Shown piece by piece: positions 2,946 through 47,137 of a stretch of DNA of 64,000 nt. The DNA is from Candidatus Hydrogenedentota bacterium (lineage in GTDB: Bacteria > Hydrogenedentota > Hydrogenedentia > Hydrogenedentales > SLHB01): positions 1 to 64,000 of the forward strand of contig BTWA01000032.1 in the NCBI GenBank assembly GCA_045863295.1, in the 5' to 3' direction. Position 1 is the first letter of the stretch. Every line of letters starts with the position of its first letter. The notes below the pieces were generated by a model, which saw only the letters and a list, made by a program, of their open reading frames with translations, was not told where the DNA came from and did not search any database. The translations under genes were made by a program, and so were the position numbers.

Positions 2946-3179
2946 ATGATGAAGTTGCAAGTGCTCGGCACGGGCTGCCCCAAGTGCCGCAAACTCACCG
3001 AATCGGCGGAGGCCGCCGCAAAAGAACTTGGGCTGGAATACGAATTGGAGAAGATTACTGACCTGCACGACATCATGGCGTTCGGCGTCATGGTAACTCC
3101 GGCCTTGGTCGTCGATGGACAGGTGAAGTTGTCCGGGAAGGCGCCGGATGTCGGTGAGATCAAAAAGCTCCTCGTGTGA
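2946..3179 (+). CDS. Small thioredoxin-fold redox-active disulfide protein (Thioredoxin_3 type)
   Basis: LGTGCPKC...GVMVTPALVVDG, 77 aa, a typical partner of DUF318 permeases. Confidence 0.9.
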   Translation: MMKLQVLGTGCPKCRKLTESAEAAAKELGLEYELEKITDLHDIMAFGVMVTPALVVDGQVKLSGKAPDVGEIKKLLV

Positions 3180-3234
3180 TCATCGCGCAACACCGCTTTC
3201 CCATGTGGGAACAGACAATTCAGGAGGTCATGCC

Positions 3235-4011
3235 ATGTTGCAAACAAGCGTGGGATTCATCGGTTCAGGACGGGTCGCCAAGATTCTCTTGACCGGTTGG
3301 GCGAGAGCGAAATTCATGCCAAAGCAGGTTGTGCTTTTCGATCCCAAACCGGAAGCGTGCGAGGCGCTGAAGCCACTTGGGAGTGAAATCCAGGTAGCGC
3401 CAGGAGTGGAATTGGCGGCCGCGCAGGATATCGTTTTCCTTGCCGTCCATCCGCCGGCCATTGCAGAGGCCGCGGCCGCAATCAAGCCATCGTTGCGCGC
3501 AGGCGGCCTGCTTGTTTCCCTTTCGCCCAAGTTCACCATCGCCAAACTGACCGCGCTGTTGGATGGATTCGATCGCATCGCCCGAGTCATACCGAACGCG
3601 CCGTCCATTGTGGGCCGCGGATTTAACCCGGTTGCGTTTGGCGCCACACTGACCGCTCACGATCGATCCGTCCTTGGCGCATTGTTGAAGAATCTGGGCG
3701 ATTCTCCCGAAGTGAACGAACAGCACCTGGAAGCCTATGCGATCTTGTCCGGCATGGGGCCAACCTATTTCTGGCCGCAGTTGTATGAACTCGTCGCGCT
3801 GGGCGAAACCTTTGGCATCGGCCGGGAACAGGCGATCGAAGCCATTGACAAGATGCTTTGGGGATCCGTGGCGACCATGAGAGACGCCGGCATTTCGCCG
3901 GAACAAGTCCAGGATTTGATTCCGGTCAAACCGGTATCGGACGACGTTGCCGCGTTGGTCTCGGCCTATCATGCAAAACTCGCCGGACTCATGGAGAAGA
4001 TAAAACCTTAG
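3235..4011 (+). CDS. Pyrroline-5-carboxylate reductase-like NAD(P)-binding oxidoreductase
   Basis: GFIGSGRVA Rossmann motif, DIVFLAVHP, RVIPNAPS, SGMGPTYF. AGGAGG RBS before 3235. Confidence 0.75.
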   Translation: MLQTSVGFIGSGRVAKILLTGWARAKFMPKQVVLFDPKPEACEALKPLGSEIQVAPGVELAAAQDIVFLAVHPPAIAEAAAAIKPSLRAGGLLVSLSPKFTIAKLTALLDGFDRIARVIPNAPSIVGRGFNPVAFGATLTAHDRSVLGALLKNLGDSPEVNEQHLEAYAILSGMGPTYFWPQLYELVALGETFGIGREQAIEAIDKMLWGSVATMRDAGISPEQVQDLIPVKPVSDDVAALVSAYHAKLAGLMEKIKP

Positions 4012-4056
4012 TTCCTTCTGTTGTCGCAGGATGTTTTGATTGGGGGGAAATGAAGT

Positions 4057-5379
4057 ATGAACAGGCAACCTGAAGTTGACAAGCCGGACAAGCCACAAGG
4101 AGGCCTGCAGCGTATTGCGCTCTTGACGCTTGTCGCGATGGCGGTCGTGGCCGCTGTTTATCTTAAAGGAGATCGAAAGACAGAGGCATCGAGTCCATTG
4201 ATCGCTGCAACCACGTCTACCGGAGTGCGCCCTGCTTCTCAGGGTGCCTTGCCGAAACTGATTGACTTGGGCGCGGGAAAGTGCATTCCGTGCAAGGCGA
4301 TGGCGCCCATACTCGAAGCATTGAAATCGGAATTCCACGGGAGTTTCGAAGTGCAGTTTATCGATGTATGGGAGAACCCGGGCGCCGGGGAGCAATACGG
4401 CATCCAGTTGATTCCAACGCAGATTTTTTACGATGCGTCGGGAATGGAGCGATTCCGTCACGAGGGCTTCTACTCGCGCGACGATATCCTCGCAAAATGG
4501 AAAGAGCTGGGCGTGGAACTCGGCGACACGGCCGCAAAACAGGTTGAGTTCAGCCGCTGGGATCCCGCCATACCGGATGCGCGACCCAAAGAAACCATCT
4601 GCTATATGTGCGATGGCGACATCAACCCGAGGACACGGGCCATTTTGAAGACGGACAAGGGCGATGTGGCGTTTTGTTCGCTTCATTGTTTTTTCATCAC
4701 GTATTCGAGCATGACCGAGGCGAAACCCAATCTCGACGACGTTAGCGTCACGGACTGGTCCGACGGCGCGCTGATTTCCGCCAAGTCCGCGAACTATGTC
4801 TACGGCGTGGATGCCGCCCAACGGCCGACGATCAAGGCATTCAAAGACACGGCGGCCGCTGCGTTGGAGCGGACGGCGTCGGGTGGAAATGGTCTGGAAT
4901 GGGCATCGCTTCAGGACAAGGAGCTTGCGACGCGTTGCGGGTTTTGCGATCGGGCCGTGTATCCGGAGGACGCGTGCGGAGTGAAGGTCGAGGGACTCAG
5001 CACATTCGGATGCTGCACGATGTGCGCGCTTGGCGTTGCGGCCAGACTGAATAAAGATATTGAGGTCACGGCCAAAGATGGGCTGACGGGCGAAACGATC
5101 GTGGTGAGCACCCTTGAAGGGCATGTGAGTGCGCTTACACCGGCGACAGCGGTTGCCTGGGCGGGCGCGAAGAAAGACGCCGAGGGCAAGATCGCCTCGA
5201 CCGGATGTTTCAAGCAAGCATTTTTCGCGAACGAGGACAACCTGCGCCAATGGGTTCTCGACCATCCAACGGCCACGGGCCGGTTGGTGACTATGGAGCA
5301 GGCCCTCGCGGAAAAAATGAAACTGACGCCGCAACAAATCAGCAAGGCCTGCAAAATCGGGGAATGTTCGCCCAAGTAG
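4057..5379 (+). CDS. Membrane-anchored thioredoxin fused to two Cys-rich NosL/MerB-like domains
   Basis: N-terminal TM segment, CIPC thioredoxin with IPTQIF, then CYMC..FCSLHC and CGFC..GCCTMC. The C-terminal part resembles the MerB lyase domain. Confidence 0.7.
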   Translation: MNRQPEVDKPDKPQGGLQRIALLTLVAMAVVAAVYLKGDRKTEASSPLIAATTSTGVRPASQGALPKLIDLGAGKCIPCKAMAPILEALKSEFHGSFEVQFIDVWENPGAGEQYGIQLIPTQIFYDASGMERFRHEGFYSRDDILAKWKELGVELGDTAAKQVEFSRWDPAIPDARPKETICYMCDGDINPRTRAILKTDKGDVAFCSLHCFFITYSSMTEAKPNLDDVSVTDWSDGALISAKSANYVYGVDAAQRPTIKAFKDTAAAALERTASGGNGLEWASLQDKELATRCGFCDRAVYPEDACGVKVEGLSTFGCCTMCALGVAARLNKDIEVTAKDGLTGETIVVSTLEGHVSALTPATAVAWAGAKKDAEGKIASTGCFKQAFFANEDNLRQWVLDHPTATGRLVTMEQALAEKMKLTPQQISKACKIGECSPK

Positions 5380-39690: not shown

Positions 39691-40515
39691 ATGGCCAATG
39701 TTTTTCGGAGAATTCAGCGCCGCATTCTCATACGGCTTGTGCGGCTTGTCCAGAAGAGTCTGATTCGGTATCAATACGGCATGATCAGCAAATTGCCGAT
39801 CAACGATAACGAACTGCTGTTCTTGAATTACGGTTATTTGGACGGCGAAACCGGTGCGCTGACGTTGAACCCGGAGGAAGAACCGTTTCGAACATCCATT
39901 CACCTGTACCACCGCACAGCGGCCCTGGGATCCCCGCAAGACAAAGACGTGCTCGAAGTCGGTTGCGGCCGCGGCGGCGGATCGGCGCATATCATGCGCG
40001 CGTTCCAGCCGCGGAGCATGACCGCCATTGATCTCTGTGCCTCGGGCATCGACTTTTGCCGGCGGCACTTCGCATCCAGTGGCGTGCGGTATCTTACCGG
40101 TGACGCGGAGTCAATTCCGCTTCCCGACGCGGCATTTGATCTCGTGATAAACGTCGAGTCTTCCCATTGCTATCCCAAACTCGATCGTTTTCTGGCCGAA
40201 GTGCATCGGGTTCTCCGGCCCGGCGGACTCTTCTGCTATACCGACTTTCGCGCAAGAGACCAGATGAACGGATGGCGTGCCGCGCTGGCGGCATCGGGTC
40301 TGGAGATGATCCAAGAAGAGGACATCACCGCCCCCGTCGTTGCGGCCTTGGCGAGTGATAACGAGCGCAAATTGGGGCTTATCGAAACGAAAGTTCCTTT
40401 ACGAATGCGCGACTATTTTGCCAAGTTTGCGGCCATTGAAGGCGCGCCGTTGAACACGGCATTCAAAAACGGCACGGCCCAGTATTGGGTGTTCGTTATG
40501 CGCAAATCACGATAG
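39691..40515 (+). CDS. Class I SAM-dependent methyltransferase
   Basis: FLNYGY, LEVGCGRGGG, GDAESIP, NVESSHCY, RVLRPGG. Confidence 0.88.
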   Translation: MANVFRRIQRRILIRLVRLVQKSLIRYQYGMISKLPINDNELLFLNYGYLDGETGALTLNPEEEPFRTSIHLYHRTAALGSPQDKDVLEVGCGRGGGSAHIMRAFQPRSMTAIDLCASGIDFCRRHFASSGVRYLTGDAESIPLPDAAFDLVINVESSHCYPKLDRFLAEVHRVLRPGGLFCYTDFRARDQMNGWRAALAASGLEMIQEEDITAPVVAALASDNERKLGLIETKVPLRMRDYFAKFAAIEGAPLNTAFKNGTAQYWVFVMRKSR

Positions 40516-41043
40516 AGTTTCGCTTGCGAGTCGAATTTTCTCACGTTCCGCAATCAACTCGTCGCAGGCTGACCGATTCGCAGGTTCCATGACATCGAAT
40601 CCGATTAACTCCCAGCGCGGATCGTCCGGATTCAGTCCCAGGAACTCGATATAACCGCGATCCGCAATAAAGCACTGTCCCAAAGCCGGCAACAGATAGC
40701 CGCCGGATTCCGCCAAATAGTCGCGCGCTTCGTCATGATTGCGGCACCAATTGTGCCAGTAGGCGCTGGAATTGGGCGGACTCCACAGAGTGTCCGCCGC
40801 ATCCTTCAATTTCTTCCAATTGAGGTATCCGTGCTCCCGTGCAATCACGTCAAGCGCATGTTTGTGCTGGACCAGGTGCCGTTCGCGTATGACGGCTTCG
40901 AGCGGCATTCCCTTAAACGGTTGAATGCGTTGAAACCGCATGGCCGCGGCTTCGACTTGCGCGATCGTTGCGCCGTGCAGGTCCTTGACGAGGAGTTCGG
41001 CTGCATTCTTGCATTTGTCTACGGATGGGATTGGGCGTGACAC
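40507..41043 (-). CDS. Conserved-looking hypothetical protein with 'IAREHGYLNWKKLK' motif
   Basis: GTG at 41043 after AAAGGA. Contains PSVDKCKNAAELLVK...ALDVIAREHGYLNWKKLK and LGLNPDDPRWELIGFD. Confidence 0.7.
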   Translation of the reverse strand: MSRPIPSVDKCKNAAELLVKDLHGATIAQVEAAAMRFQRIQPFKGMPLEAVIRERHLVQHKHALDVIAREHGYLNWKKLKDAADTLWSPPNSSAYWHNWCRNHDEARDYLAESGGYLLPALGQCFIADRGYIEFLGLNPDDPRWELIGFDVMEPANRSACDELIAEREKIRLASETLS

Positions 41044-41045
41044 GG

Positions 41046-41175
41046 GATGCGTTCCTTTGTATTGCGTGGACTTGAATCCGCTTGAGTCCACAAAGGAAGA
41101 CACTTATTAAAGACTACGGGTATCGGGGAGTGGTACGACCTTTCGCGGATGAGGCGCCTCCCGGCACCTGACCTG
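41046..41175 (-). ncRNA. Candidate structured cis-regulatory 5' leader RNA
   Basis: Two stem-loop domains between a TTGAGT-18-TACTAT promoter and the start codon; the second stem pairs with the SD. No family assigned. Confidence 0.45.
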
Positions 41176-41227
41176 TGAATAGTACCGCATCGTAGCCCAC
41201 ACACTCAACTCAATCGTTCAAGAGGGT

Positions 41228-42694
41228 TCAGCGACGACGGGATATCGTTTCGTACGCGGCAAGGGCCAGTTTGCGCGCTTCAGCGTGATCGACAACGGGG
41301 GCCGGATAGGTATTGCCAAGCGCGACACCGGCAGACGCCAGCTCGATAGGGGAAGCCTCCCAAGGCTTGTGAATCAAGCCGTCGGGCAGGCTGCAAAGTT
41401 CAGGCACCCACCGGCGAACGTATTCGCCTCGGGGATCAAACTTCTCGCCCTGGCTGACCGGGTTAAACACGCGAAAGTAGGGCGCGGCATCGGCCCCGCA
41501 TCCCGCCGTCCACTGCCATCCCTGCGTGTTGCTAGCCAAATCGGCGTCCACCAAGGTGTCCCAGAACCAGACAGCGCCGTCGTGCCACGATATCAGCAGA
41601 TCCTTGGTCAGGAATGAGGCGACAATCATGCGCACGCGATTGTGCATCCAGCCCGTAGTCCAGAGTTCCCTCATTCCTGCGTCCACAATTGGATATCCGG
41701 TAAGGCCTCGCTGCCAGGCTTTGAGTGCGTGTTCATCTGCTTGCCACGGAAACGCGCGAAAGGCATCACGAAGAGGCTCCCTGGGCAGCGTTGGAAAGTG
41801 ATACAGCAAGTGGTATGAGAATTCACGCCATCCGATTTCGGCGAGGAATTTTTGTGCCGCATCGCTCGTGTCCCGGTCGCGTTCTGCGGCCATGCGGTCA
41901 TGGGTCGCATGCCATATCTGCCGAGGACTGATTTCGCCGAAATGAAGATGGGGAGACAATCGAGACGTTCCGGGCTGACTTGGCGTATCGCGGCGCAAGC
42001 TGTAGTCACCAATGTTTTCGTCCAGAAATGTTTCCAGACGATCCATAGCAGCTACTTCGCCAAATCGCCATGCTGAAGCAATGCCCTTGGCCCACGGAAT
42101 GCGCGGTTCCAGTTTCAGATTGCCGAGTGCGAGCGATCGAGGCCACGTTGAGGGCGTTCTCAAAGAATTGGGCGCGGCCAGTGGATCAGCGGGTTCCGCC
42201 GTTCCCAGACAGGTACGCCAGTACGGCGTGAATACTTGATAGGGGCGCCCTTCCTTCGTCTGAACTTCCCAGGGTTCGAACAACAAGGATGCGTTAAAGG
42301 TGCGGCAATCGATGCCCAGTTCTGTCAGACGATGTTCGACACTGCGATCGCGCGCCAATACCTGCGGCTCGTACCGCCGATTCCAGAATACCACCGTGCC
42401 CCGTGATTCGTGGGCAATCTCGCTCAAGGCAGTCGCGGCCGGACCTTTCCGAATGATTAAACGGCTGCCACGTTTCTCCAGGGATTGACCCAGCGATTCG
42501 AGTGACTGATGCAACCAGTAACGGCTGGCTCCGCCGGGCGCCCACGGGTATTCCTCTTCCGGACACCAGATGTAGACGGGTAAAACCGGGAGGCCGGTGC
42601 GTATGGCTGCGTCTAGTGCCGGATTATCCGCAAGTCTTAAGTCCTGCCGAAACCAAACGATAGCGGCGGCGTCTATATCCCGCTGTTTTGCCAA
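41228..42694 (-). CDS. phrB: Deoxyribodipyrimidine photolyase (class I CPD)
   Basis: WFRQDLRLADNPAL, TSRLSPHLHFGEIS, WREF, TGYPIVDAGMR, MHNRVRM, DADLASN, DAAPYFRVFNP. Probable TTG start at 42694 after AAAGGAG. Confidence 0.93.
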   Translation of the reverse strand: MAKQRDIDAAAIVWFRQDLRLADNPALDAAIRTGLPVLPVYIWCPEEEYPWAPGGASRYWLHQSLESLGQSLEKRGSRLIIRKGPAATALSEIAHESRGTVVFWNRRYEPQVLARDRSVEHRLTELGIDCRTFNASLLFEPWEVQTKEGRPYQVFTPYWRTCLGTAEPADPLAAPNSLRTPSTWPRSLALGNLKLEPRIPWAKGIASAWRFGEVAAMDRLETFLDENIGDYSLRRDTPSQPGTSRLSPHLHFGEISPRQIWHATHDRMAAERDRDTSDAAQKFLAEIGWREFSYHLLYHFPTLPREPLRDAFRAFPWQADEHALKAWQRGLTGYPIVDAGMRELWTTGWMHNRVRMIVASFLTKDLLISWHDGAVWFWDTLVDADLASNTQGWQWTAGCGADAAPYFRVFNPVSQGEKFDPRGEYVRRWVPELCSLPDGLIHKPWEASPIELASAGVALGNTYPAPVVDHAEARKLALAAYETISRRR

Positions 42695-43096
42695 AATCAC
42701 TCCTTTACCCCGATTGTATTCACGGTCAAGGACATTTCCTGTCATGGTGCGCGTTGTCACTTTACTAACTAATTTTGCCTGTTCGTTACAATGATTGAAG
42801 CGATATCACGACTGTGTGTACGACGAATCACACTGAACGTGGTTATTACCTTGCGGAATATTGACCCATACTGTCACAATGCCAGCCAACGTATCCTTTC
42901 AAATCGGGGATTGTGGGGGTATGCGCCGAGGCAACGTGCGGATTCTGGGTGTCATGCTCTCCATTGGCCCGGGAGTCTGCCTGAACTCGCCGGAAACAAA
43001 TCGGCTAGCTTTCATCCCCGGGGGTGGACGGAAGCGGCTACTGATAGTGTTCAGAATCTTCCGAATGCAATCACGCCGCGACGGGAACTGATCTCG

Positions 43097-46000
43097 ATGC
43101 TGGTTTTGAATCTCATACAGAATGTCGCCTTGCTGGTCACGCTCGTTGTCGTCCATCCACTTCTGGCCCGGCGCTTTCGCATACGGTATCCATGGTTTCA
43201 CATACTTTCCGGTTTGCTTTTTGGCGGCGTCTGCGTGATCGGCATGATGGCGCCCGTGCAAATCGCACCGGGCGTCATATTTGACGGACGTTCCATCGTA
43301 CTGAGCGTGGCAGGATTGTTTGGCGGCCCCATCGTTGCGTTGGTTGCCGCGATTGTCAGTGGCTCATATCGTCTGTACATTGGCGGCAGCGGCGCTATTC
43401 CCGGCATCGTGGTCATCGTGGAAGCAACCACGATAGGTCTCGCGTTTAACTACCTGGGCCGACGTGACTCGAAATTCATGTCTCTGTTTTGGTTTTGGGT
43501 GTTGGGTCTTGTCGTGCATGCGGCCATGATCTTTACATTGTTGCTGATGCTGGGCGACCAGCTTGGACCGAACCCAATCCTGAATCTCGGCGCACCCATC
43601 CTCGTTCTCTATCCGATCGCAACCATGGTTATTTGCCGGATTCTCCAGGATTACGAGGAGCGCCTGGAGATTGAGGAAAACCTCAAACAAAGTCAGGAAA
43701 AGTACCGCATTCTTGTGGAAAATGCCGCCGAGGGCATCGTGGTCGTTCAGGACGCCCACATCGTATTTGCGAACGCCGCGTTGGCGACCATTGTTGGTTA
43801 CACGCAGGATGAACTGCTTGTCAGGCCATTCGTCGATTTTGCACACCCCGATGATCGCCGGATGCTGATCGAGCGGCATCAGCTCCGGCTGGAAGGAAAA
43901 GAATTTCCCTCAATAGGCGAGTTGCGAGTCATTCACAAGTCAGGGGCTGTACGCTGGGTCGAGTTGAACGCGGTTCGAATTGAATGGAATTCACGGGTCG
44001 CCGTGCTCAACTTCATCACTGATATTACCAACCGGAAGAGCGCGGAAAAGGCGCTTGCCGAGAGCGGCATTCGCTACAAGTCGGTAGTCGACGCATTGGG
44101 CAGTGCTGTTCTGGTCCACGCTTCCGATGGAACCATCATCGAGTGCAACGCCGCCGCGGAACAGGTACTCGGCATCTCACGAGGTCAAATCTTGGGGTCT
44201 GGCCCGCAGACCTCGGAATGGCCGGCCATATTTGAAGACGGTTCTCCATTTCCCGTGGAAGAATATCCCGTCGTAATCACCCAGCGCACAGGCATTGCGC
44301 AGCACGGCGTCGTTATGGGGTTGACCCGGCCCGACGGCAAACAGATTTGGATCATCATCAATACAGTTCCCTTGTCAGGGCCCAACAGGGACAAACCATT
44401 CGCCGTGGTTTCCAGCCTTGTCGACATTACCGAGTTAAAACGTTTATCGGAAGCGCTCGCTCGGAGCAACGACGAACTGGAATTTATGATCCAGGCATTG
44501 CCCGACCTGCTGTTCCATATGTCCGGCGACGGTACAATTAAGGATTTCCGCGCGCAAGACCCTGCGACGCTTTATCTTCCGCCGGACGAATTTATCGGGC
44601 GAAAGCTGCAAGATGTCCTGCCACCGGATGCCGCCAAAGCGATCTCCGAAGGTCTTGCGGAATTGTACCGAGGCGACAAGATTGTCTCCGTAACGTACAA
44701 GTTGCCCATGCCCAACGGCGACCACTGGTTTGAAGCCCGTTTCAACACGCTTTCGAGTTCCGACGAAGTAGTCGCCCTCGTTCGTAACATTACCGATCGC
44801 AAGCGTGTTGAGGATGCGCTGCTGGAAAACCAGGCGTATCTCGCCGCATTCATTAAACATGCGCCGGCGGCGGTGGCCATGATGGATACGGAATTGCGCT
44901 ATATCGCCTGTTCCGCCCGCTGGATGTCGGACTATGGGATCGAAGGCCGGGATATCGTGGGTATTTCACATTACGAAGTTTTTCCAGAGATTCCTGCACG
45001 GTGGAAGGAAATCCACCGACGTTGCCTCCAGGGGTCCATCGAGCGTTGCGAAGAAGATCCGTTCGCACGAAGTGACGGAACTATTCAGTGGCTGAGTTGG
45101 GAAGTACATCCCTGGTATACAATCGATGGCCGTATCGGCGGATTGATGATGTTCACGCAAGACATCACGCAAAGCCGCCAGGCCGATGAACGGCTCCGGC
45201 ATGAAAGAGAACGTTTCGCGGCGATTATCGAGGCCACCAACATTGGCACGTGGGAATGGAACGTTCAGACGGGCGATGCGATATTCAATGAACGGTGGGC
45301 CACCATTGGGGGATATACGCTGGAGGAATTGGCTCCTCACAGCATCCAAACCTGGATTGATCTCGCGCATCCCGATGACCTTGCCCATTCCATTGATCTT
45401 ATTTCGAAGCACTTCAGCGGGGAGATCCCGTACTACGATTGCGAATGCAGGATGCGGCACAAAGACGGATCCTGGGTGTGGGTCCACGACCGGGGCAAAG
45501 TTACGGAGTGGGGTAGCGACGGTTCTCCGCACGTTATGGCCGGCACGCATACCGACATAACCGGGCGAAAGCAGGCCGACGAGGCACTGAGAGAACTCAC
45601 GGAACGGTTCAAGAAAATCGCGGCACAGGTTCCGGGAGTCGTGTATCAATACAAACTCAGGCAGGACGGGACTTCGTGTTTTCCCTATGCGAGCGAAGGA
45701 ATCCGTTCCATTTATCGCGTCGATCCCGACGACGTCCGGGAGGACGCCAGTGCGGTATTCGAAGTGCTTCATCCCGAGGACTACGACGGCATTGTCGAAT
45801 CCATACAGGTATCCGCCAGAAACATGACAACCTGGCGGCATGAATACCGGGTGAAGTTTCCCGATGGCGATGTGCGCTGGTTGTACGGAAACGCCATACC
45901 GCAGGTAGACACGGACGGCGCAGTGCTATGGCACGGATTTATCTCCGATATTACCGAACAACGCCGGCTGCGAGACGAGACAGAAGCGTTGCAAGGCCAG

Positions 46001-47137
46001 TTGCTGCAGGCGCAGAAAATGGAGTCTGTTGGAAGGCTTGCCGGCGGGGTCGCGCATGATTTCAACAACATGCTGGGCGTAATTCTTGGACACACCGAAA
46101 TTGCCCTGATCAATACACGCAAGGACAACCCCATTCACCACGACCTTGCGGAGATTCAACGCGCAGCACAACGATCGGCTGACCTTACCCGGCAACTGCT
46201 GGCTTTCGCCCGGCGCCAAACCGTGAACCCCCAACCGCTCGACCTGAATGAAACCGTGGGGGGCATGTTGAAAATGCTGGGAAGGCTCACCGGCGAAGCG
46301 ATCGAGCTTCTGTGGCTGCCTGGACCGTCGTTGTGGCGTGTGAAGATAGACCCGTCCCAAGTGGATCAGATTCTCACGAATCTAATCATAAACGCCAGGG
46401 ACGCCGTTAAGGGTTCCGGCCGTGTCTCTATCCAAACCGAGAATGCCCACGTGCATGAATCTGACGGCTCCAGCGAACTGCAGGCCGTACCCGGCGAGTA
46501 TGTGTTGTTGTCCGTCAGCGATAACGGGTGCGGCATGACCAAGGAAGTTCTCGCCAAGGTTTTCGAGCCGTTTTTCACCACCAAACCGGTCGGCGAGGGT
46601 ACTGGACTTGGATTGTCCACCGTATATGGCATTGTGAAACAAAACGACGGCTTCATCCACGTCGACAGTGAATGGGGCGGGGGTTCTGTGTTCAAGATCT
46701 ACTTCCCGCGCCATACTCAAGAAGTCATTGAAGACAAGAGCATTATCGCGGCCCGTTCGGCGAAACGAGGCACCGAAACTATTCTTCTGGTCGAAGACGA
46801 AGTGTCCATTCTCGAACTGAGCAAGCGTATACTGGAAAGTCTGGGATATACCGTGATGGCCGCCTCCAGCCCCGGGGAAGCCATTCAGGTGTGCAGCCGA
46901 TTCGAGGGGGTCATTCATTTGCTGGTAACCGATGTCGTGATGCCCGAGATGAACGGCCGGCAACTGGCCTCAAAATTGAACGAAATGCGGCCCGGTATGA
47001 AGTGCCTTTTCATGTCCGGTTACACCGCGGATGTGATCGCCGATCACGGGGTGCTGGACAAGGATGTGCGATTTATTCAAAAGCCCTTTTCCATCGCCGA
47101 TCTTGCAGTCAAGGTGCGCGAGGCCATGGAAGAATGA
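43097..47137 (+). CDS. Hybrid sensor histidine kinase: 5TM-LYT-type input, six PAS/PAC, HisKA, HATPase, REC
   Basis: GVIFDGRS..GLFGGP TM region, six segments ending (D/N)IT, GGVAHDFNN, NARDA, GTGLGL, LLVEDE...DVVMP...KPF. Confidence 0.93.
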   Translation: MLVLNLIQNVALLVTLVVVHPLLARRFRIRYPWFHILSGLLFGGVCVIGMMAPVQIAPGVIFDGRSIVLSVAGLFGGPIVALVAAIVSGSYRLYIGGSGAIPGIVVIVEATTIGLAFNYLGRRDSKFMSLFWFWVLGLVVHAAMIFTLLLMLGDQLGPNPILNLGAPILVLYPIATMVICRILQDYEERLEIEENLKQSQEKYRILVENAAEGIVVVQDAHIVFANAALATIVGYTQDELLVRPFVDFAHPDDRRMLIERHQLRLEGKEFPSIGELRVIHKSGAVRWVELNAVRIEWNSRVAVLNFITDITNRKSAEKALAESGIRYKSVVDALGSAVLVHASDGTIIECNAAAEQVLGISRGQILGSGPQTSEWPAIFEDGSPFPVEEYPVVITQRTGIAQHGVVMGLTRPDGKQIWIIINTVPLSGPNRDKPFAVVSSLVDITELKRLSEALARSNDELEFMIQALPDLLFHMSGDGTIKDFRAQDPATLYLPPDEFIGRKLQDVLPPDAAKAISEGLAELYRGDKIVSVTYKLPMPNGDHWFEARFNTLSSSDEVVALVRNITDRKRVEDALLENQAYLAAFIKHAPAAVAMMDTELRYIACSARWMSDYGIEGRDIVGISHYEVFPEIPARWKEIHRRCLQGSIERCEEDPFARSDGTIQWLSWEVHPWYTIDGRIGGLMMFTQDITQSRQADERLRHERERFAAIIEATNIGTWEWNVQTGDAIFNERWATIGGYTLEELAPHSIQTWIDLAHPDDLAHSIDLISKHFSGEIPYYDCECRMRHKDGSWVWVHDRGKVTEWGSDGSPHVMAGTHTDITGRKQADEALRELTERFKKIAAQVPGVVYQYKLRQDGTSCFPYASEGIRSIYRVDPDDVREDASAVFEVLHPEDYDGIVESIQVSARNMTTWRHEYRVKFPDGDVRWLYGNAIPQVDTDGAVLWHGFISDITEQRRLRDETEALQGQLLQAQKMESVGRLAGGVAHDFNNMLGVILGHTEIALINTRKDNPIHHDLAEIQRAAQRSADLTRQLLAFARRQTVNPQPLDLNETVGGMLKMLGRLTGEAIELLWLPGPSLWRVKIDPSQVDQILTNLIINARDAVKGSGRVSIQTENAHVHESDGSSELQAVPGEYVLLSVSDNGCGMTKEVLAKVFEPFFTTKPVGEGTGLGLSTVYGIVKQNDGFIHVDSEWGGGSVFKIYFPRHTQEVIEDKSIIAARSAKRGTETILLVEDEVSILELSKRILESLGYTVMAASSPGEAIQVCSRFEGVIHLLVTDVVMPEMNGRQLASKLNEMRPGMKCLFMSGYTADVIADHGVLDKDVRFIQKPFSIADLAVKVREAMEE

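Follow-up and report, generated by a model that had tools for sequence, protein, structure and literature searches.

The window analysed here, a 64,000-nt stretch of a Candidatus Hydrogenedentota contig, carries on its minus strand a leader of ~120 nt in total which, judged against its relatives in other genomes, is a real and strongly conserved structured RNA at the start of an mRNA, where it occludes the ribosome-binding site. Its helices, their covariation, its position at the mRNA 5' end and its near-exclusive tie to one gene family make up the observed part of the case, as read from aligned sequences; as to what the RNA does, we consider it fairly likely that the leader is a member of an uncatalogued riboswitch-like class controlling translation. 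An earlier note, made from the letters of the window, had proposed an unclassified aptamer followed by an expression platform that sequesters the Shine–Dalgarno sequence (SD). Our analysis supports this proposal, in which a ligand would bind the first domain: a conserved, covarying structure is found upstream of homologous genes, and the stems lie ahead of the start codon rather than in coding sequence.

The position of the start codon is central here, the longest form of the open reading frame (ORF) beginning far enough upstream to take in the stem (Table 1). A homologue search of 5.8 billion protein clusters gave 104 candidates and, from these, 17 proteins at E ≤ 1e-3. In the alignment, 16 of the 17 (the window's own record excluded) start M-x-R-P/S/T-I/V-P-S opposite VSRPIPS of the window, and longer N-termini are called in two of the homologues aligned for the start. 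Because the homologue N-termini align with VSRPIPS, the gene starts at GTG 41043 and not at 41103, and the stems drawn in the earlier note are therefore untranslated, which disposes of the objection that they might be coding. In one relative (L006) an in-frame stop lies inside the stem region of the leader. In the stored call for the window ORF (P0001, 144 aa) an internal Met serves as the start, which probably makes the call too short; homologues indicate 178 aa.

A 184-nt gap follows the end of the photolyase gene (41228, minus strand), after which the ORF of the 178-aa gene is reached. On the far side, a convergent class I methyltransferase gene (39691-40515, plus strand) overlaps the stop of the 178-aa gene by 9 nt; neither the photolyase nor the methyltransferase neighbour is kept among relatives. 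Divergent from the photolyase gene is a 1448-aa ORF (42791-47137, plus strand), the translation of which, read by eye, suggests a hybrid histidine kinase with a membrane anchor, several PAS domains and a receiver domain. The RNA library overlapping the window has contigs spanning 40500-40656 only.

Table 1. Features of the leader and its surroundings (window positions; RNA strands are written in the sense of the gene), with the partner ORFs of related loci (positions within those loci) in the last two lines.
Feature	Position	Strand	Remarks
Photolyase gene	41228-42760	minus	Pfam DNA_photolyase and FAD_binding_7; 5' neighbour of the leader
Candidate promoter	41179-41208	minus	-35 TTGAGT 41208-41203, 18-nt spacer, -10 TACTAT 41184-41179
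P0 5' strand, AGGUG	41165-41169	minus	partner 41152-41156
Loop L1 of the H-type pseudoknot, CC	41163-41164	minus	1-4 nt among relatives (alignment A6)
P1 5' strand, GGGAG	41158-41162	minus	partner 41126-41130
Loop L2, single conserved G	41157	minus	just 5' of the P0 3' strand
P0 3' strand, CGCCU	41152-41156	minus	pair counts from A6
PK2 5' strand, AUCCGC	41145-41150	minus	partner GCGGAU 41076-41081, in the domain 2 apical loop
Unpaired invariant AAA	41141-41143	minus	an invariant G comes next and opens P2' (A6, 52 sequences)
P2' mini-hairpin, GGU-cgu-ACC	41132-41140	minus	3 bp and a 3-nt loop; followed by conserved A 41131
P1 3' strand, CUCCC	41126-41130	minus	covariation
Inter-domain linker	41099-41125	minus	neither sequence nor length kept (alignments A3, A4)
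Anti-SD strand, UUCCUUUG	41091-41098	minus	partner 41052-41059
Domain 2 upper stem 5' strand, UGGACU	41085-41090	minus	partner 41067-41072
Domain 2 apical loop, CAAGCGGAUUCA	41073-41084	minus	holds the PK2 3' strand GCGGAU (41081-41076)
Domain 2 upper stem 3' strand, AGUCCA	41067-41072	minus	covariation
One-sided internal loop, CGCAAUA	41060-41066	minus	between upper and lower stems; variable sequence (A3, A4)
SD strand, CAAAGGAA	41052-41059	minus	SD AAAGGA at 41058-41053
ORF, longest form	GTG 41103 to 40507	minus	198 aa
Regulated gene	40507-41043	minus	178 aa; GTG start 41043-41041, set by homologue alignment
Family gene fused to partner (316-346 aa)	~2950-3990		L020, L021, L022, L024, L031; five Myxococcus/Pyxidicoccus loci
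Separate partner ORF	~3550-4070		L013, L014, L017, L025, L028, L030, L037, L043, L026, L048

Every string quoted in the earlier note, including GGTGCCGGGAG from 41168, lies on the minus strand where it had been placed, and the spacing of 9 nt between the SD and the GTG is likewise correct by sequence. The fold itself had to be redrawn in part. Domain 1, which the note had treated as a structured unit, spans ~45 nt (41169-41126) and stands as such through its GGGAG/CUCCC helix (our P1), while the remainder of its proposed fold gives way to an H-type pseudoknot of P0 and P1. The extension GGTGCC...GATACC has a 3' partner that is not conserved; GGUG instead pairs with CGCC, within GGCGCC, to form P0. 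Since P0 and P1 share no nucleotide and are separated by gaps of 1-4 nt (L1) and one G (L2), the two can form together. The third loop, of 25 nt, holds the invariant AAAG and the 3-bp mini-hairpin P2'. For the proposed CC-GCGAAA-GG hairpin we find no support: CCGC is part of a long-range strand, PK2, and the true small hairpin is P2'. The CC-GCGAAA-GG hairpin is not kept in the f7 Hydrogenedentota group and in other phyla, where a hairpin AUC..GAU around CGCGAAA, the candidate first labelled P2, is not kept either. The loop GGAUUCAAGUCC had also been considered as resembling a tRNA T-arm; ARAGORN reported zero tRNAs in the window.

Domain 2 (41098-41052), with its SD-sequestering stem, was drawn correctly from the outset and reads TTCCTTT-GTGGACT, a 12-nt loop, then AGTCCAC-GCAATAC-AAAGGAA. 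What the earlier model lacked is the pairing of AUCCGC in the third loop of domain 1 with GCGGAU in the apical loop of domain 2 (PK2), by which the putative sensor domain is tied directly to the SD helix.

Evidence for these helices comes from two alignments, in each of which the pairing was compared with that of a slid control (partners shifted by 1-3 columns). Across the 52 distinct domain-1 sequences of alignment A6, 97.0% of the 624 cells of P0, P1 and P2' are paired, compared with 45-54% when slid, and 79 cells are changed on both sides (≤17 slid). The covariation score was reached by none of 500 shuffles, a control that overstates significance because many of the sequences are close kin, so that the slid controls are the fairer ones. 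The model-made alignment of the whole leader, A4 (66 rows, including five junk rows consisting mostly of gaps), contains 31 pairs in seven helices, of which 94.7% of cells are paired (42-58% slid), with 195 cells changed on both sides (≤38 slid) and 23 of the 31 pairs covarying. P0, P2' and PK2 are absent from the structure of covariance model R1, so the alignment made with R1 was not fitted to them. G-U pairs are frequent (UG 46 in P0 and 16 in the lower stem, A4), and because these would be A-C on the other strand, the constraint acts on the RNA of the gene strand. More distant copies were required for such tests: over the nine closest leaders RNAalifold gives 22 pairs with zero compensatory change, since these sequences are too alike.

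Helix by helix, P1 exists in several complete versions (GGGAG:CUCCC, GAGGG:CCCUC, GAAGG:CCUUC, GGGAAG:CUUCCC), with 97-99% of cells paired and both-side changes in four of its five pairs. P0 (4-7:18-21 in A6) is paired in 96.2% of cells, and its variation is mostly one-sided (UG 36, CG 15, UA 1; GC 37, GU 7, AU 1; 7 unpaired). The inner pair of P2' takes all four Watson–Crick forms (CG 22, GC 17, UA 9, AU 3), the helix as a whole being 97.4% paired (A6). In domain 2, compensatory changes occur at all 13 base pairs across relatives; the SD:anti-SD helix (123-130:214-221, A4) has them in eight of eight pairs, with 90.7% of cells paired, and the upper stem in five of five counted pairs, with 94.2% paired (A4).

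PK2 (26-30:154-158, A4) is paired in 92.8% of cells, with both-side changes in three of its five pairs; an additional pair, 31:150 (CG 21, AU 7), has also changed on both sides. These cells are gaps for 27-40 rows of A4 because domain 2 of the Parvibaculum-type leaders is unaligned there, and PK2 was for that reason also tested by a script over 90 distinct leaders. Watson–Crick helices of at least 6 bp were found in 55 of the 90 leaders with their own partner, compared with 60 of 900 when partners were swapped between clades and 88 of 900 when shuffled. Eight hexamer pairs realise the same helix: AUCCGC:GCGGAU, ACCCGA:UCGGGU, GUCCGA:UCGGAC, GCCCGA:UCGGGC, ACCCAC:GUGGGU, ACUCAC:GUGAGU, GCCCGG:CCGGGC and UUCCGC:GCGGAA. 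With G-U pairs allowed, the per-sequence test is weak (median null p 0.13; p ≤ 0.05 in 12% of sequences) and also picked up off-target pairings, among them that of UCCGCGA with UUGUGGA, which is confined to Hydrogenedentota.

The case for the structure of the leader thus comes from comparison with relatives and not from the folding energy of a single sequence. Folded alone, the whole 151 nt are unexceptional (z -1.30), and domain 1 is unremarkable under nested folding (z -0.24), as expected for a pseudoknot. Domain 2 by itself is stable (-17.7 kcal/mol, z -3.18; one of 200 shuffles equally stable), and the SD is wholly paired in the minimum-energy fold of 54 of 90 relatives, its mean paired fraction being 0.86 compared with 0.68 when the upstream part is shuffled.

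A hairpin that is stable alone, and an SD that is paired in most relatives, would also suit an element working without any ligand, i.e. a constitutive translational attenuator, an RNA thermometer or a 5' structure that stabilises the mRNA, the compact fold of which would set a low SD accessibility or a level dependent on temperature or ions. It would likewise fit that zero mutually exclusive alternative pairings are kept across clades, the one candidate occurring in Hydrogenedentota only. However, a thermometer or attenuator requires the hairpin alone, and this leaves unexplained the separate 45-nt pseudoknot, the invariant AAAG and UCA, and the covarying 6-bp link to the hairpin loop found in six phyla. 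We regard such a ligand-independent element as improbable.

With respect to the 5' end of the transcript, the promoter TTGAGT/TACTAT proposed in the earlier note is present as quoted but scores 8 of 12, under the threshold of the promoter scan, which returned zero promoters above threshold in 40400-41400; two terminator-like sites in the same region are both on the plus strand. This candidate would set the start of transcription at P0 or immediately ahead of it. Counted from the first G of P0, a TAnnnT hexamer stands 12-14 nt upstream in 32 of 89 relatives, compared with 0-2 at other offsets, and it is from this enrichment that we conclude that the mRNA probably begins with the leader itself. 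The window's own -10-like hexamer sits at -16 from P0.

The leader is found well beyond Hydrogenedentota. A protein-based scan with one genome per species yielded 54 loci, over which we ran R1, built from 17 distinct leaders. A match lies directly 5' of the family gene in 51 of the 54, and an unfiltered second model adds another (L039); the two others (L040, L054), which are partial protein matches, gave no leader match with R1 or with the unfiltered second model. Together with the pairing in the two alignments (97.0% and 94.7%), these 52 of 54 loci rule out the alternative raised in the earlier note that no conserved, covarying structure lies upstream of homologues. By label, the carriers belong to at least six phyla, always with the ~175-aa family gene in the 52 loci: Hydrogenedentota; Acidobacteriota (Bryobacterales); a Brocadiaceae metagenome-assembled genome (MAG); Myxococcota (Archangium, Myxococcus, Pyxidicoccus, Hyalangium, Vitiosangium); Alphaproteobacteria (Parvibaculum and relatives); Gammaproteobacteria (a MAG and Legionella tunisiensis); and Deinococcota (Trueperaceae). 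In the eight closest loci the leader is near-identical, and all are labelled Hydrogenedentota except one contig labelled Nitrospiraceae. Leader and gene of this contig (L001) are near-identical to those of two Hydrogenedentota loci (L004, L010), and it may be mis-binned.

In 135 genomes of the window's phylum, a permissive DNA pattern matched at 17 places, spread over 16 of the genomes, and its reversed control at 18 places; on inspection, 11 of the 17 are full leaders and six are chance. The window's own genome has one copy. A profile search for the family gene found it in 17 of the 135 genomes and added four diverged leaders (L082, L083, L089, L087), while a pattern scan of one metagenome gave four loci, three of them new, all 5' of the family gene. 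On a low-coverage metagenome contig (L090:316-480) no in-frame start codon of the family gene follows the SD, probably through a sequencing frameshift.

RNA-only genome searches were made with R2, a covariance model of domain 1 alone. It matched 33 of 151 genomes of the order around a Hyalangium genome, 21 of 73 of the order around Parvibaculum sedimenti, two of 151 sampled Deinococcota, four of 41 sampled Trueperaceae-family genomes and two of 151 sampled Gammaproteobacteria, with a single copy in most matching genomes. By protein-family profile, the family gene lies directly 3' of 34 of 35 located matches of the RNA models, and of 22 of 22. The distribution is patchy, and leader and gene travel together.

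As the earlier note had anticipated, the leader could not be assigned to an Rfam family. Scanning window positions 40800-41500 with the 4227 models of Rfam 15 at E up to 10 returned only sR47, on the opposite strand and at 15.9 bits (gathering score 40), and for ten related loci in other phyla (E up to 1) the only match was Chlorobi-1 (19.6 bits; gathering score 50). In the openly accessible full-text literature we found no account of the motif. These scans also bear on whether the leader acts in cis at all, rather than being a small self-cleaving ribozyme or an independent small RNA that lies upstream of the gene by chance. Ribozymes do occur among compact pseudoknotted RNAs of such size, a class that the form of the leader would suit; yet no ribozyme or small-RNA family of Rfam matches in the window (E up to 10) or the ten loci (E up to 1), and the conserved structure takes in the gene's own SD and always stands directly before the start codon, which makes such an origin highly implausible.

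Of the features looked for in a riboswitch, two were found. A conserved, covarying, aptamer-like structure lies in a 5' untranslated leader, and an expression platform is coupled to it, in that all eight SD:anti-SD pairs covary and the apical loop above them pairs with domain 1. A further feature looked for was placement before genes that are related in function but not homologous: two variant copies precede an APH-family kinase gene and a metallo-beta-lactamase-fold gene, and all other examined copies precede one family. Variant copies before unrelated genes are typical of ligand-sensing leaders, whereas control that is almost limited to one gene family speaks against the riboswitch reading.

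With E ≤ 1e-3 as the limit, that family has 337 representatives in a set of 1.84 billion, and its members bear the name 'hypothetical protein' in their sources. The 178-aa protein stays under the cut-off of every Pfam and NCBIfam model. The N-terminal helical motif IAREHGYLNWKKLK, pointed out in the earlier note, is present and largely invariant among close homologues; the weak match to Glyoxalase_8 at that stretch (E 0.014 and 15.9 bits for the 198-aa ORF; E 0.0057 and 17.1 bits for 178 aa) stays under the cut-off of 23.7 bits that membership demands and spans profile positions 25-55 of 143 only. Weak N-terminal matches to the same profile occur in five of 70 family members (best E 1.4e-4), and the likeness to the start of Glyoxalase_8 is limited to the helical motif. 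AlphaFold2, given the 70-sequence alignment, produced a confident model (pLDDT 95, pTM 0.76). Foldseek found zero PDB structures at E ≤ 1e-3 with it, and an exhaustive structural search (VIA-align, 48,161 chains) had a best Z of 4.4, from which no fold assignment follows.

Directly 3' of the family gene, Myxococcota and Parvibaculales have another conserved ORF (114-139 aa), and in some loci the two are fused (Table 1); the ESM Atlas contains, besides 'hypothetical protein', a row for a fused form of 339 aa named 'putative GIY-YIG nuclease family protein'. The partner resembles the GIY-YIG catalytic domain at scores under the family cut-offs, matching the N-terminal region of TIGR01453 (E 2e-5 and 1.2e-6; 24.7 and 28.7 bits, with a cut-off of 56) and, in one of four proteins, Pfam GIY-YIG (E 0.11). 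Family gene and partner probably act together; the partner ORF is absent from the window and its close relatives. In a gammaproteobacterial MAG, the stop of the family gene and an RPE65-type carotenoid oxygenase gene (L008:3497-4888; Pfam E 5.6e-130) overlap, and the two genes may be co-transcribed.

The two variant RNA copies come from Trueperaceae genomes (L100, 33.5 bits; L154, 27.2 bits) and, by eye, keep P0 or P1, P2', PK2 (as ACCCAC:GUGGGU) and the hairpin. In both (L100:1612-2657, L154:1217-2184) a short ORF comes next after the RNA, 16 codons long in one copy and 20 in the other; its stop overlaps the start of the next gene (ATGA), and both peptides contain H-Y-S. The next gene encodes an APH-family phosphotransferase (Pfam APH, E 5e-20) in one copy and a metallo-beta-lactamase-fold protein (Lactamase_B, E 3e-11) in the other, and the overlap suggests translational coupling of the short ORF to that gene. 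In leader-peptide attenuation of resistance genes (erm/cat type), the sensor is a ribosome stalled on a leader peptide. The variant copies are similar in having an upstream ORF of 16 or 20 codons before the kinase or beta-lactamase-fold gene, and differ in that a conserved pseudoknotted RNA precedes this ORF and sequesters its SD.

The close tie to one family raises the question of whether the leader is an operator, bound at its pseudoknot domain by the ~175-aa protein or by the GIY-YIG-like partner, which would thereby repress its own translation; on this view the kinase and beta-lactamase-fold genes, with their variant copies, would fall within the regulon of that protein. The counts given above (52 of 54, 34 of 35 and 22 of 22) fit such an operator. 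Both genomes with variant copies (G138, G691) also have the family gene with its own leader, so that the family protein could act on all copies, and a family without assigned function or fold could bind RNA. However, Pfam and NCBIfam recognise zero RNA-binding domains in the family proteins, the architecture of the leader is the same with the partner gene present, absent or fused, and two pseudoknots with invariant unpaired nucleotides would seem more like small-molecule aptamers than like typical operators. We consider a protein operator rather unlikely.

Taking the leader as riboswitch-like, we compared it with known classes that share parts of its architecture. The ZTP (pfl) riboswitch has two subdomains joined by a variable linker and held by a long-range pseudoknot. 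The leader, too, has two domains, a linker variable in length and sequence, and a long-range pseudoknot, but its sequence and helices are unrelated and it has no Rfam match; ZTP genes serve purine and folate metabolism, whereas the genes of the leader are uncharacterised. The preQ1-II, SAM-II/SAM-V and guanidine-III riboswitches are compact H-type pseudoknots near the SD, with an A-rich third loop. Our leader is likewise a compact H-type pseudoknot that their Rfam models do not match, and while the SD of these small classes usually lies within the pseudoknot, here it is in a separate hairpin joined by a second pseudoknot.

The closest parallel in principle is the cobalamin riboswitch, in which the L5-L13 kissing loop stabilises P13 and hence the hairpin that controls the ribosome-binding site (PMC10327014). 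As with PK2, this contact joins a sensor-domain loop to the apical loop of a hairpin further downstream, which governs sequestration of the ribosome-binding site. The L5 consensus, UCCCG, resembles the PK2 strand (A/G)(U/C)CC(G/C). The leader differs in having neither a B12 box nor a four-way junction, its sensor being a 45-nt H-type pseudoknot, and in that the hairpin receiving the loop contact is the SD hairpin itself. Cobalamin models of Rfam (RF00174 and variants) have no match in the window or the ten related loci, and the principle of loop–loop pairing alone is shared.

With the L5-L13 contact (PMC10327014) as template, the leader probably locks its SD hairpin through PK2. We propose that a small molecule would bind the ~45-nt pseudoknotted domain and stabilise the PK2 loop–loop pairing, and that PK2 so stabilised would lock the SD hairpin and keep the SD from the ribosome, making the leader an OFF switch. 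An ON direction is also conceivable: the hairpin being stable by itself, an added lock might contribute little and the switch could run the opposite way. As to the signal, we suggest, tentatively and with low confidence, that the leader represents a new riboswitch class responding to a small molecule of xenobiotic, antibiotic-like or damage-derived nature and turning on or off a small protective regulon, consisting of the ~175-aa protein, often with its GIY-YIG-like partner, and in some lineages of an APH-type kinase and a metallo-beta-lactamase-fold hydrolase. If this were true, the ~175-aa family would count as a new factor in small-molecule resistance or repair.

Dozens of riboswitch classes have been validated, each of which, when new, revealed unknown metabolism or signalling. 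The candidate described here combines two pseudoknots, a presence in at least six phyla, no match in Rfam 15 and a gene family without known function or fold. The identity of its ligand would give a role to the ~175-aa family and perhaps also to the kinase and hydrolase genes, and the direct loop–loop contact from sensor to SD hairpin would add a second natural case to a regulatory principle so far known from cobalamin riboswitches.
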